Shown here piece after piece: positions 18,391-26,180 of a DNA stretch of 64,000 nucleotides. The DNA comes from a virus (Duplodnaviria; Caudoviricetes). A program made the position numbers and the translations under genes. The stretch spans positions 221,745 to 285,744 of IMG/VR virus record IMGVR_UViG_3300037067_027643. One strand, 5' to 3'. The notes under the pieces are model-generated. The model saw only the letters and a list, made by a program, of their open reading frames with translations. It ran no database searches and was not told the origin of the DNA. The first letter of the stretch is position 1. Each line of letters begins with the position of its first letter.

Positions 18391-19200
18391 ATGAACAAAG
18401 ATACACTAGGTGATAGAATGAAAGACTATTACGAAAACAGAACTCGTATTAGCCTTCCAAGAAGAAGCTATACTATTATTAGAATTGATGGTAAAGCTTT
18501 TCACAGTTATACCAAAGGATTAAATCGCCCGTTTGATGATGGTTTAATCGAAGATATGGATTCTACTACTGCTTATTTGTGTAAAAACATACAAGGAGCT
18601 AAATTTGGATACGTTCAAAGTGATGAAATTTCTATACTGCTTTGTGATTTTGAAGACATAGGAACTCAAGCTTGGTTTGATAACAATATTCAAAAGATGT
18701 GTAGTGTATCGGCTAGTATGGCTACAAGTAAATTTAATCAACTAAGATTGATGAGAACAGCTAAATGTGGATTCGATTTGTTAAATGATTGTAAATCTCA
18801 AATATTTGCTATTCCATTAATTCATGATATGTGTAATAAAAAATTAGCAGAATTTGATAGTCGAGTATTTCAAATACCATCCAGTATCGAAGTTGAAAAT
18901 TATTTTATCTGGAGACAACAAGATGCTACTAGGAACAGTATTCAATCTGTAGCACAATCATTGTATAGTCACAAAGAACTAAATAATAAAAATTGTGATC
19001 AGCTACAAGAAATGATATTTCAAAAAGGCATTAATTGGAATGATTATCCAAGTAAATATAAAAGAGGTAGAATAATTAGTAAGGAAACATATACCAAAGA
19101 TAATACTAACAGAAGTAGATGGACAAATATAAACAACAATGAAATACCAATATTTACACAAGAAAGAGAATTTATTAGTAATTTAATCCCAAAGATATGA
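18391..19200 (+). CDS. thg1: tRNA(His) guanylyltransferase Thg1 / Thg1-like 3'-5' polymerase
   Basis: IRIDGKAFHSYT, RPFD, YVQSDEIS, FDSR, YFIWRQQDATRNS, GINWNDYP..KRG. Confidence 0.95.
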   Translation: MNKDTLGDRMKDYYENRTRISLPRRSYTIIRIDGKAFHSYTKGLNRPFDDGLIEDMDSTTAYLCKNIQGAKFGYVQSDEISILLCDFEDIGTQAWFDNNIQKMCSVSASMATSKFNQLRLMRTAKCGFDLLNDCKSQIFAIPLIHDMCNKKLAEFDSRVFQIPSSIEVENYFIWRQQDATRNSIQSVAQSLYSHKELNNKNCDQLQEMIFQKGINWNDYPSKYKRGRIISKETYTKDNTNRSRWTNINNNEIPIFTQEREFISNLIPKI

Positions 19201-22274: not shown

Positions 22275-22835
22275 ATGGAAAAATATATATTCTTAGATAT
22301 TGATGGAGTAATAGCAACACCAAAAACTATAATTGATTGTGGTTGGGGTTTAACTCCTATTTGTCAAGAGAATTTAGGATTTATTTTAAAAGAAACAAAT
22401 GCTAAAATCGTAATAAGTTCTAGTTGGAGACTAAATACAGTTGAAGAAACAGTTAAATATATGGACGAACAAGGATTTTTATTTTGTGATTCTATTGTTG
22501 GAGTAACTATAAGAGCTTATCACTATATTCAAAAAGGTGTACATTTAGGAATTCCAAGAGGAGTAGAAATCAAACAATATATAGATACCCATTTAAAATA
22601 TCCATGGTATGCTTATCCTGAAAGAGATAATGAGTTTAAATTGTATAGAGAAGATGGAACATTTTTAATGATGAGACATCAAGAACTTGGTAAGGATTAT
22701 AACTATTGTATATTAGATGATGATACAGATTTTTTATTAGAACATAAAAATTATTTCGTACAATGTAATCCAAACGTAGGTTTAACTAAAAGTAAAGCAT
22801 TAAAAGCAATTAAAATATTGAACAATGGAAATTAA
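22275..22835 (+). CDS. HAD-family phosphatase (type found in RNA-repair 'Swiss army knife' proteins)
   Basis: IFLDIDGV, IVISSSWR, RGVEIKQY, YCILDDD, GLT. Confidence 0.85.
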   Translation: MEKYIFLDIDGVIATPKTIIDCGWGLTPICQENLGFILKETNAKIVISSSWRLNTVEETVKYMDEQGFLFCDSIVGVTIRAYHYIQKGVHLGIPRGVEIKQYIDTHLKYPWYAYPERDNEFKLYREDGTFLMMRHQELGKDYNYCILDDDTDFLLEHKNYFVQCNPNVGLTKSKALKAIKILNNGN

Positions 22836-23683: not shown

Positions 23684-24157
23684 ATGACAACAACATTCTC
23701 AAAAATTAAATTACACAGTTCAGTAGATCTAATTACCAATTCATCCACAGTTATATTCACTTATAGCGGAGGTAGTTTATCAGCAGTAAAAGACCTAGTA
23801 AACGAAATGTTAAAAGTATTTGGAAAGACAGAAACATTTGATGACATATTTTATGCTGATGTATTTTGTGAAGATCTTGATACATACTTAGAAGATGATT
23901 TATATTCAAATTTTATAGAAGAAAATGAAAATGAAGCGGTAAGTGATATTAAAGTATTAGTAGATGATATTTTAACAGGTAAGGTAGAAAGACCAAAATG
24001 GATGGATGAAGTAGAGGAAGAAGAAAGTAGATGTGATTATTTTACTCCAGAAACAGCTTTATATCTTAAAGCAAAAGATGAAAAATATAACGAATTGGCA
24101 AATAAATTATTAAAATATTTAAATTCACAAACTCATGAAGCAACAAGAGATGGCTAA
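23684..24157 (+). CDS. DLITNSS-motif protein 1
   Basis: N-terminal KLHSSVDLITNSSTVIF. Confidence 0.8.
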   Translation: MTTTFSKIKLHSSVDLITNSSTVIFTYSGGSLSAVKDLVNEMLKVFGKTETFDDIFYADVFCEDLDTYLEDDLYSNFIEENENEAVSDIKVLVDDILTGKVERPKWMDEVEEEESRCDYFTPETALYLKAKDEKYNELANKLLKYLNSQTHEATRDG

Positions 24158-24632
24158 AAATAAAAAAGTAATATTCGTAATCCAACCTCAATCAATGGTT
24201 GATATTATTACGAACAGTTCTTCAGAATTATTTGTTTTTGAAGGCAAAGAAAAACAAGTGATAGAAGAAATGATTAAAGATGTTTATCCAGATTACTTAA
24301 ATGAATATGAACAACTTGTATCAATAAATGATATTAGTGACGATAATTTATATACATATTTAATTTATAAATATTGGGTTTACGATATTCATGATAATTT
24401 ATATCTATCAAAAGAATTCAATATCGACCCAAAAATTTTATATTCTAATTGGGATAATAAAAATACAGATAAGTATTGGTATCCACAATTAAGTAGTGAA
24501 GGTTGTAGATTAATAAAAGATAAAATTGATCCCAACAGACAGATGTATTTTCTTTTTAGTAAATATGACAATCCAGAATATGAATATCAAGAACTGTTAG
24601 AAAATATTGGAACTAGATATCATTTAGGTTAA
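24150..24632 (+). CDS. DLITNSS-motif protein 2
   Basis: QPQSMVDIITNSSSELF; start at 24150 or 24135. Confidence 0.8.
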   Translation: MAKNKKVIFVIQPQSMVDIITNSSSELFVFEGKEKQVIEEMIKDVYPDYLNEYEQLVSINDISDDNLYTYLIYKYWVYDIHDNLYLSKEFNIDPKILYSNWDNKNTDKYWYPQLSSEGCRLIKDKIDPNRQMYFLFSKYDNPEYEYQELLENIGTRYHLG

Positions 24633-24653
24633 TAATTATAAATATATAAAATT

Positions 24654-24983
24654 ATGAAAAAAGAAAAATTAATATTTATAAAATTGCATTCATTTGTTGA
24701 TTTAATAACAAATAGTTCAACAGAATTGTATGTAGTAGATAGTTCTAAATCGGAAGGTATTTTAAAAGAAATATTCGATTTAATTATTAAAGAAGGTAAT
24801 TCTGGTTATGATGAAACTAAAATAGAATGTTTAAAAAATTATAAATATAAAAGTGATTATATTATTCCAGAAGATTTAGATCAAAATACAGTTTTTATTT
24901 GTAATATCGATCGTGGAAATATTATTTTAATGAAAATCATAGAAAAATATTTTACAACAATTAATTTAAAATATAATGGATAA
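24654..24983 (+). CDS. DLITNSS-motif protein 3
   Basis: KLHSFVDLITNSSTELY. Confidence 0.8.
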   Translation: MKKEKLIFIKLHSFVDLITNSSTELYVVDSSKSEGILKEIFDLIIKEGNSGYDETKIECLKNYKYKSDYIIPEDLDQNTVFICNIDRGNIILMKIIEKYFTTINLKYNG

Positions 24984-25257
24984 AATAACAATAAGTAAGC
25001 CACATAGTTCTGTTGATTTAATAACCAACAGCTCTACAGTCATTTTTACAGTATCAAATAGTTATGTAAATATGATACAAGATCTAATAAGACATAGATG
25101 TCAAACATCGGATGATATGGAATGGTTTGACAAATGGTTAACGGTTATAGAAAACGAAGACGGTAACATTGAAATAGAATCATTTATAAACGATCCAGAT
25201 TGGTTTTGTGATTTTATTAATGATAATTTCAATGTAATTAATGAATGGTTTAGTTGA
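24976..25257 (+). CDS. DLITNSS-motif protein 4
   Basis: KPHSSVDLITNSSTVIF. Confidence 0.8.
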   Translation: MDKITISKPHSSVDLITNSSTVIFTVSNSYVNMIQDLIRHRCQTSDDMEWFDKWLTVIENEDGNIEIESFINDPDWFCDFINDNFNVINEWFS

Positions 25258-25265
25258 AAATTAAA

Positions 25266-25297
25266 TTTGTTTAAATAAATAATATTACTTACTTTTG
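25266..25297 (+). promoter_or_regulatory. Bacteroidota-type -33/-7 promoter
   Basis: TTTG-N20-TACTTTTG immediately before the radical SAM gene. Confidence 0.75.
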
Positions 25298-25313
25298 TAA
25301 AAATAAATAAAAC

Positions 25314-26180
25314 ATGATTAAAACAAGAATAGAACCAGAAGCGAATTATCGTGCTATTTGGTGTAATGGTAAAACACTTAGATTTGCAATAGATCCAAAG
25401 AAGCCAATTACAGAATTAAAGTACCCAGAATTTTTTGATATAATGACAACTTCCTGTTGTTCAGGGTTTTGCAAAGAATGTTATATGGATAGTTTCCCGC
25501 AACCACATTATGAAAATATCATAGAAAAAACAAGAACATTTTTTGATAATATTCCAAAAGAACATTTACCATTTCAAGTTGCACTTGGTGGAGGAGAACC
25601 AACAAGTCATCCTGATTTTATTGAACTACTTAGAGTATTAAAGGAAGAATATGATATCTGTCCTAACTATACTACAAATGGAATGTTTTGTGATTATAAA
25701 GAAGCTATATCATCTCAAAATGAAATTGATATATTAGAAGCAACTAAAAAATATTGTGGTGGAGTAGCAGTTAGTTGTCATCCGCATTTAAAAGATTATT
25801 GGGAGAGAGCTGCTAAACAATTTATACATTATGGTATAAAACTTAATTTTCATATCATTATATCAGATCGAGAATCAATTGACAACTTTGTAGAAATATA
25901 TAATGAATGGAAAGATCGAGTTGATTACTTTGTTTTGTTACCCTACGGAGTACAAGGAAGAGCTAAACAAAAAGAAATAGATTGGGAATATTTAGTAGAA
26001 CAACTTCCAGAAGAACAATCTAAAATAGCGTTTGGTGCTAACTTTTATCCATATTTACTTAAAGGAGGACATAATATTAAAGTGTGCTTGTATGAACCAG
26101 AAATAATGAGTAAATTTTTAGATTTAAAAGATATGAAACTTTATCCAAGTTCGTTTAATTTAACAGAAATAAAACAATGA
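25314..26180 (+). CDS. radical SAM enzyme
   Basis: CSGFCKECY (CxxxCxxC), ALGGGEPTSHPDF, YTTNG, VAVS; no obvious C-terminal SPASM Cys cluster. Confidence 0.92.
   Translation: MIKTRIEPEANYRAIWCNGKTLRFAIDPKKPITELKYPEFFDIMTTSCCSGFCKECYMDSFPQPHYENIIEKTRTFFDNIPKEHLPFQVALGGGEPTSHPDFIELLRVLKEEYDICPNYTTNGMFCDYKEAISSQNEIDILEATKKYCGGVAVSCHPHLKDYWERAAKQFIHYGIKLNFHIIISDRESIDNFVEIYNEWKDRVDYFVLLPYGVQGRAKQKEIDWEYLVEQLPEEQSKIAFGANFYPYLLKGGHNIKVCLYEPEIMSKFLDLKDMKLYPSSFNLTEIKQ

Follow-up and report, generated by a model that had tools for sequence, protein, structure and literature searches.

Four consecutive genes that encode small proteins with a common N-terminal tag, followed by a gene for a radical SAM enzyme, lie on the plus strand of the window, by which is meant the whole 64,000-nucleotide stretch of DNA that was analysed. 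Tagged protein 1 (23684–24157; 157 aa; tag codons 23714–23758) ends in D-G and belongs to the most widespread subfamily, and tagged protein 2 (24150–24632; 160 aa, or 165 aa from an alternative start at 24135; tag codons 24189–24233) ends in an invariant H-L-G. Tagged proteins 3 (24654–24983; 109 aa; tag codons 24687–24731) and 4 (24976–25257; 93 aa; tag codons 25003–25047) belong to subfamilies of seven and five members, respectively. The tag, with the consensus H/Q-S-x-V-D-(L/I)-I-T-N-S-S, is close to the N-terminus in all four proteins, and the pattern D-[LIVM]-[IV]-T-N-S-S has exactly four matches in a six-frame search of the 285,744-base genome, all of them inside a 1.3-kb segment. These genes had been picked out in an earlier, sequence-only reading, and the ORFs, motifs and codons that it gave were confirmed for all four. 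Its proposal that the motif is conserved at the protein level is borne out by the 238 distinct copies of the tag, in which TCN and AGY serine codons are both used, so that selection acts on the protein. Its description of the bodies as acidic does not extend to protein 3, which is barely acidic (net 0.02).

The fifth gene (25314–26180, plus strand; 288 aa) had been called a radical SAM gene, correctly: as judged from its CxxxCxxC motif (C49/C53/C56), its GGE motif (GGGEP at 92–96) and its match to Pfam PF04055 (30.0 bits; cut-off 29.5), the product is a member of the radical SAM superfamily. C49/C53/C56 and G92–E95 are invariant in 45 relatives; K20-T21-x-R23 in an N-terminal extension of ~35 aa, N178 and H180 are further invariant positions. 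The enzyme is without SPASM or twitch cysteines, and its clade has no conserved cysteine beyond C155 and hence no C-terminal auxiliary-cluster cysteines. No Pfam match to a PqqD-like RiPP recognition element (RRE) is found in the enzyme, and the 35-aa extension is too short for a full one. The score is far below every named NCBIfam cut-off, and the best match among solved structures, at E 1.5e-7, is not a close homologue. The clade is large and unnamed (1,063 clusters at E ≤1e-10), and its clusters in the Atlas are 96–100% viral; in the GTDB collection the enzyme occurs in only five contigs, all from metagenome bins, and a tblastn search of 50,697 cultured phage records gives one 24% match and none other. 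Some homologues of 670–710 aa look like products of intein insertion, and long intein-like insertions directly after the cysteine motif are seen in clade enzymes L404:7192-9330, L443:3195-4799, P0124, P0127 and P0135.

The window is the terminal part of a 285,744-base virus record, a giant phage of ~286 kb with a G+C content of 25.5% and 22 tRNA genes. Most of the window is also represented in contigs of a second study, which agree with it at every covered position. The phage is present in groundwater and landfill metagenomes, and no RNA dataset is listed among those that contain it. Its host is probably a member of the Bacteroidota, as suggested by promoter statistics: Bacteroidota-type promoters have 75 matches in the genome, 38 of them directly upstream of ORFs, versus 23–46 in Markov models. 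One such sigma-A match (25267–25297, plus strand; TTG, 20 bases, TAnnTTTG) ends 16 bases 5′ of the start codon of the enzyme. It is kept in an 89%-identical locus (L086) and absent in nine other close loci. The promoter that had been ascribed to the radical SAM gene is thus real and of the Bacteroidota type, while sigma-70 matches are at chance level (33 versus 30.5 expected), as is the terminator scan. Upstream of the five genes lie a Thg1-like tRNA-His guanylyltransferase gene and a gene for an RNA-repair-type HAD domain (18391–19200 and 22275–22835), neither of which is conserved as a neighbour of the module. A second radical SAM gene of the phage (near 176,864) falls outside the clade of the module enzyme and is unrelated to it, as judged from the tree and from profile comparison.

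Linkage of the tag and the enzyme

The co-occurrence of tag and enzyme was assessed in 87 distinct enzyme-clade loci with 3 kb of upstream DNA. In 79 of these loci, one to six tagged genes lie upstream of the enzyme on its own strand at a distance of at most 3 kb, and 85 have a tagged gene within 8 kb; at the remaining two, a tag that differs by one residue is found directly upstream of the enzyme. Only a single tagged gene is present at 18 of the 87 loci, and the flanking genes differ entirely among the loci. In the reverse direction, an enzyme of the clade is found on 65 of 72 viral contigs that were collected by their tag, a set that includes near-identical gut phages. Linkage is therefore near-perfect both ways when variants are counted (87/87 loci; 65/72 contigs), and the pair is found in a large number of uncultured phages.

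The seven contigs without the enzyme are fragments, six of them estimated to be 12–60% complete and one of 5 kb; one enzyme-less tag-bearing contig is 140 kb long. Five tandem tagged genes lie at L239:5349-7508 (G008:44479-46632) in a 52-kb fragment that has no radical SAM gene, and an enzyme for these clients would have to be encoded in another part of the genome. These contigs, together with the promoter that the enzyme has for itself in the window, count against a dedicated enzyme–client pair.

No third gene is conserved in the module. After the tagged genes, the most frequent neighbour is present in 8 of 75 loci, which makes the unit a two-component one, and no protease, transporter or exporter gene, and no metabolic, kinase or glycyl radical enzyme gene, is among the recurrent neighbours. 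In one protein, P0217 (L626:280-807), the N-terminal half of a client is joined in frame to the last third of the enzyme; it was considered as a working fusion and rejected, since it probably arose by an in-frame deletion of the central part of the module. Longer fused forms were not found in the search, which is weak evidence.

Tag dialects and the client family

Scans of DNA with patterns revealed two further tags with an (S/T)-N-S-S core. The three dialects correspond to three separate enzyme clades (15, 42 and 18 rows; SH-aLRT support 97, 100 and 100) in a tree that was obtained by a quick search without bootstrap and midpoint-rooted for drawing only, the other nine rows being bystander radical SAM proteins, and tags are not mixed at any locus in the tree. 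Over their full length, the three clades align with one another (HHalign 99%), and they have the N-terminal extension and its arginine in common, and auxiliary-cluster cysteines are present in clade A only. One sister tag, F-E-T-N-S-S-S-T-H, occurs in many large phage contigs (L374–L492) with its own enzyme clade, whose members are ~295 aa long and mostly lack C-terminal cysteines. The other, G-F-V-S-N-S-S, is carried by a protein encoded at L315:2396-2752 (minus strand), the body of which is 41% identical to the H-L-G subfamily, so that the same body occurs under two tags. Of 119 eight-kb bacterial loci with the A tag, ~83 contain an enzyme that is matched by the clade profiles, and 21 contain a recurrent Avs2-like STAND family. 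Operons in bacteria in which a tagged gene and a clade A enzyme gene are joined by a gene for a large protein are seen at L569:236-5692, L530 and L613:3568-8020, the large protein being Avs2-like in L569 (E 5e-82) and L613.

It has to be considered whether the motif acts independently of the enzyme, either as a self-cleavage site (Asn-Ser cleavage or serinolysis) or as an assembly strand of a hetero-oligomer, the enzyme being a mere neighbour. N-S and S-S junctions do self-process in inteins and pyruvoyl enzymes, some tagged arrays have no enzyme nearby, and the enzyme has its own promoter in the window. However, the tag is present at all 87 enzyme loci despite wholly different flanking genes, its dialect tracks the enzyme clade, it forms the interface in the co-fold described below, and loci with a single tagged gene are common. 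An enzyme-independent role is thus very improbable, and the assembly strand that had been offered as an option in the sequence-only reading is weakened.

The tagged proteins number 257, with a median length of 147 aa, and their subfamilies are conserved over the whole length. N, S and S of the tag are present in 100% of them, although the pattern used in the search demanded these three residues; H/Q, S, D and a fixed N-terminal position were not all required. Glycine is the last residue in 57% of the proteins. The four bodies in the window give pairwise scores close to those of shuffled sequences (best p = 0.035), as the sequence-only reading had judged by eye. At the family level that judgement does not hold: when the tag is removed, the larger subfamilies still align by HHalign (99, 87, 86 and 72%), with little or no profile signal in the small subfamilies of genes 3 and 4. 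The clients are therefore best seen as diverged relatives, which look like members of one small α/β family, not arbitrary proteins. To say that they share only the motif was too strong.

No family in Pfam, PHROGs, NCBIfam or PADLOC (two clients for the last) was matched by the clients scanned. Client 1 has 747 relatives, of which 120 were listed, and a Pfam family is assigned to none of these 120; it has no tblastn match in the 50,697 cultured phage records. In monomer models of clients 1 and 2, the tag is unstructured (pLDDT 48–53 at residues 11–20) and is followed by a confident α/β domain that carries a variable helical insert. The best structural matches of client 2 have Z 5.8 (rmsd 4.8, 81 aligned) and Z 5.4 (rmsd 3.3, 77 aligned), with many ACT-like rows among the weak matches; such a ferredoxin-like or ACT-like α/β sandwich is a common arrangement, and client 1 has a match with Z 3.5 (rmsd 3.6, 77 aligned). 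Foldseek searches of a viral library (client 2) and of the PDB (client 1), as well as the Atlas searches, gave no significant match, which does not amount to a new fold. Covariation in the client 1 family (~200 effective sequences) links V23 with D156 and S28 with Q149, and provides weak evidence that the strand after the tag pairs with the C-terminal end, where the last residue would adjoin T22; the top pair may reflect subfamily structure.

Docking model and proposed modification

When the enzyme and client 1 were co-folded, a score of 0.72 was obtained, versus 0.00 for the best of three controls. In the calibration, 58 of 80 solved pairs and 2 of 110 mismatched pairs scored as high, counts that apply only roughly to the alignments used here. 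The runs agreed in at least 88% of contacts, with a partner pLDDT of at least 74. On the client, the interface consists of residues 8–27 and the helix at 33–45, and the surest contacts are those of client residues 9–14 with enzyme residues 20–25, R23 being set against H11 and S12. On the enzyme, residues 39–42, 88–90, 116–120, 149–152, 176–180, 204–209, 235–245 and 256–268 take part; judged from where they fall in the radical SAM core, these are probably the strands lining the substrate side. The co-fold suggested earlier as a check thus places the tag in the substrate face of the enzyme and, like the co-occurrence test proposed with it, supports the interpretation given in the sequence-only reading. 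Since it was made without SAM or cluster and gave no coordinates, it does not pick out the attacked residue, and it supports binding, not turnover; a pseudo-substrate or an activator would be modelled alike.

It is conceivable, then, that the tagged proteins bind the enzyme unaltered, as activators, adaptors or plugs, and that the real substrate is a small molecule or a nucleotide, as in viperins. The co-fold shows binding only, the enzyme resembles viperin in having no auxiliary cluster, and weak matches to a prokaryotic viperin profile (PADLOC pVip, E 2e-6) and to two viperin-like solved chains (E 0.002–0.003) are found. Assignment to viperin itself was rejected, the enzyme scoring only 15.1 bits against NF038283, for which the cut-off is 180. 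Moreover, metabolic and kinase genes do not accompany the enzyme, and a set of one to six diverged partners in which three core residues are invariant is more in keeping with substrates than with a single regulator, so that this alternative is unlikely.

The best explanation is instead a two-component maturation module of large phages, in which one dedicated radical SAM enzyme would serve several clients that each carry a combined recognition and target tag. We consider it probable, at roughly two chances in three, that the enzyme covalently alters the N-S-S segment of the tag, and the module is probably an undescribed protein-modification system. In the model, residues 9–14 of the tag would lie along residues 20–25 of the enzyme, probably as an added β-strand, and the first helix of the client would dock alongside, as a leader does on an RRE, the 35-aa extension appearing to take the RRE-equivalent part. 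Client residues up to 27, including N19-S20-S21, are modelled in contact with the strands lining the partial TIM barrel. From general radical SAM chemistry, the deoxyadenosyl radical would then take a hydrogen from N-S-S, most likely from a serine.

There is also a RiPP-like alternative, in which the tag is a core peptide that is modified and cut off as a small product, the folded body being a mere carrier. In its favour, the flexible tag sits at the N-terminus and is much better conserved than the body, and its modelled recognition resembles leader binding. Against such processing, no protease or transporter is linked, many near-identical copies of a core would be redundant, and the bodies are conserved throughout, with invariant residues at the C-terminus, for which a disposable carrier would have no use. 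A released product is accordingly quite improbable.

As to the outcome of the proposed modification, electron-sink oxidations need an auxiliary cluster in established radical SAM enzymology. If the chemistry is common to the three clades, the absence of that cluster from two of them argues against such oxidations, for example formylglycine formation, and favours dehydration, backbone scission, epimerisation or a stored radical; the outcome may tentatively be taken as likelier redox-neutral than oxidative. An oxidation like that of anaerobic sulfatase-maturating enzymes (anSME) is therefore less likely than had been suggested at first. A first guess would be water loss or backbone scission at a serine, after which the folded domain would begin with a dehydro or keto group, and a second would be epimerisation; the former is ranked first on the surmise that the altered residue would cap the domain beside the conserved C-terminal residues. 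The altered residue would thus come to lie beside the conserved C-terminal glycine end, the variable helical insert would set the target of each client, and the likely arena would be phage–host conflict.

If this explanation is right, several folded proteins carry a portable tag of ~15 residues that is edited by one compact enzyme, and a post-translational modification of which no description was found is widespread in large phages. The existence of at least three dialects, the enzymes of which differ in the auxiliary cluster, provides a natural comparison for the chemistry, and the module clade, with its enzyme of 288 aa, single cluster and concrete binding model, is an easy one to test. An orthogonal enzyme–tag pair for protein labelling could also be obtained, and the outcome would bear on the role of the radical SAM partner of Avs2, a question raised by the work on KpAvs2 (PMC11564622).

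Comparison with known systems

The module is real and conserved; a search of the literature did not turn it up, and no account of the tag was found in open-access publications. No tested family beyond the radical SAM superfamily includes it, and it would work like a protein-directed radical SAM maturase. RiPP radical SAM maturases with an RRE and a SPASM or twitch domain include SuiB, CteB, SkfB and TqqB. The module resembles them in a motif common to adjacent gene products, in modelled N-terminal recognition and in a target modelled as threaded into the barrel, and differs from them in having no SPASM or twitch cysteines, no full PqqD-like domain and no protease or exporter; its substrates are proteins of 93–160 aa, two of them modelled as folded domains, not short unstructured precursors. 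Action of a radical SAM enzyme on a short motif of a folded protein is also a property of PFL-AE, NrdG and anSME, and PFL-AE needs no auxiliary cluster. The enzyme, however, scores 16 bits against TIGR02493 and TIGR02491, versus cut-offs of 232 and 126, and the clients have neither a glycyl-radical loop nor (C/S)xPxR and are far smaller than the clients of these three enzymes. Membership in the anSME/sulfatase system was rejected, with no (C/S)xPxR in the clients and no SPASM in the enzyme.

In the HXS antiphage system, HxsA is matured by HxsB/HxsC with HxsD (PMC13128918). The likeness would lie in the radical SAM-dependent maturation of a folded protein, a short His/Ser-rich motif, N-terminal processing and a setting of phage–host conflict. 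HXS is bacterial and consists of two enzymes, a helper and one secreted effector with five His-x-Ser repeats, whereas the module is phage-encoded, with one clade enzyme per locus and several clients that each carry a single tag of another motif.

The closest published system is Avap1/Avap2 of KpAvs2, an accessory pair of a radical SAM protein (Avap1) and a DUF6375 protein (Avap2) (Bechon et al. 2024, PMC11564622). Defence requires Avap2, which binds Avs2; Avap1 is required against T2, its pocket does not fit an NTP, and viperin-type nucleotides were not detected (PMC11564622). As in the module, the two genes are coupled and join a radical SAM enzyme with a small protein. Avap1-like enzymes, for which DUF6375-linked homologues stood in for KpAvap1, likewise have no cysteine cluster at the C-terminus and align with the module clade from one end to the other (HHalign 98.6%, 261 columns). 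The score against the module clade is 115, versus 138–176 when the three tag clades are compared with one another and at most 68 when bystanders are; single Avap1-like proteins score 72–88 and unrelated radical SAM proteins up to 68, so that kinship with Avap1 beyond the superfamily is only suggestive. DUF6375 proteins have an invariant serine-containing N-terminal motif of their own, unlike the tag of the module, and no modification of Avap2 is reported. In loci L614–L625 these proteins start with M-K-(I/V)-W-x-x-x-G-S-E-H-S-x-N-L, with a coupled radical SAM gene in 10 of 10 loci, and the motif is a candidate fourth tag. DUF6375 (PF19902) has no Pfam match among the window proteins, and HHalign values for the families of the dialect are at noise level (≤2%).

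The module further differs from Avap1/Avap2 in being phage-borne and multi-copy. The A dialect adjoins genes for Avs2-like STAND (NLR) proteins in bacteria, whereas the module in the window is without STAND: no large NTPase ORF lies beside it there or is among the recurrent neighbours. It is a doubtful idea that the module is the phage counterpart of the radical SAM and small protein pair that regulates bacterial Avs2/STAND sensors, the small protein having been expanded into arrays of chemically armed decoys or inhibitors with one insert per host target, each switched on by a new serine-derived modification on a portable tag with orthogonal dialects.
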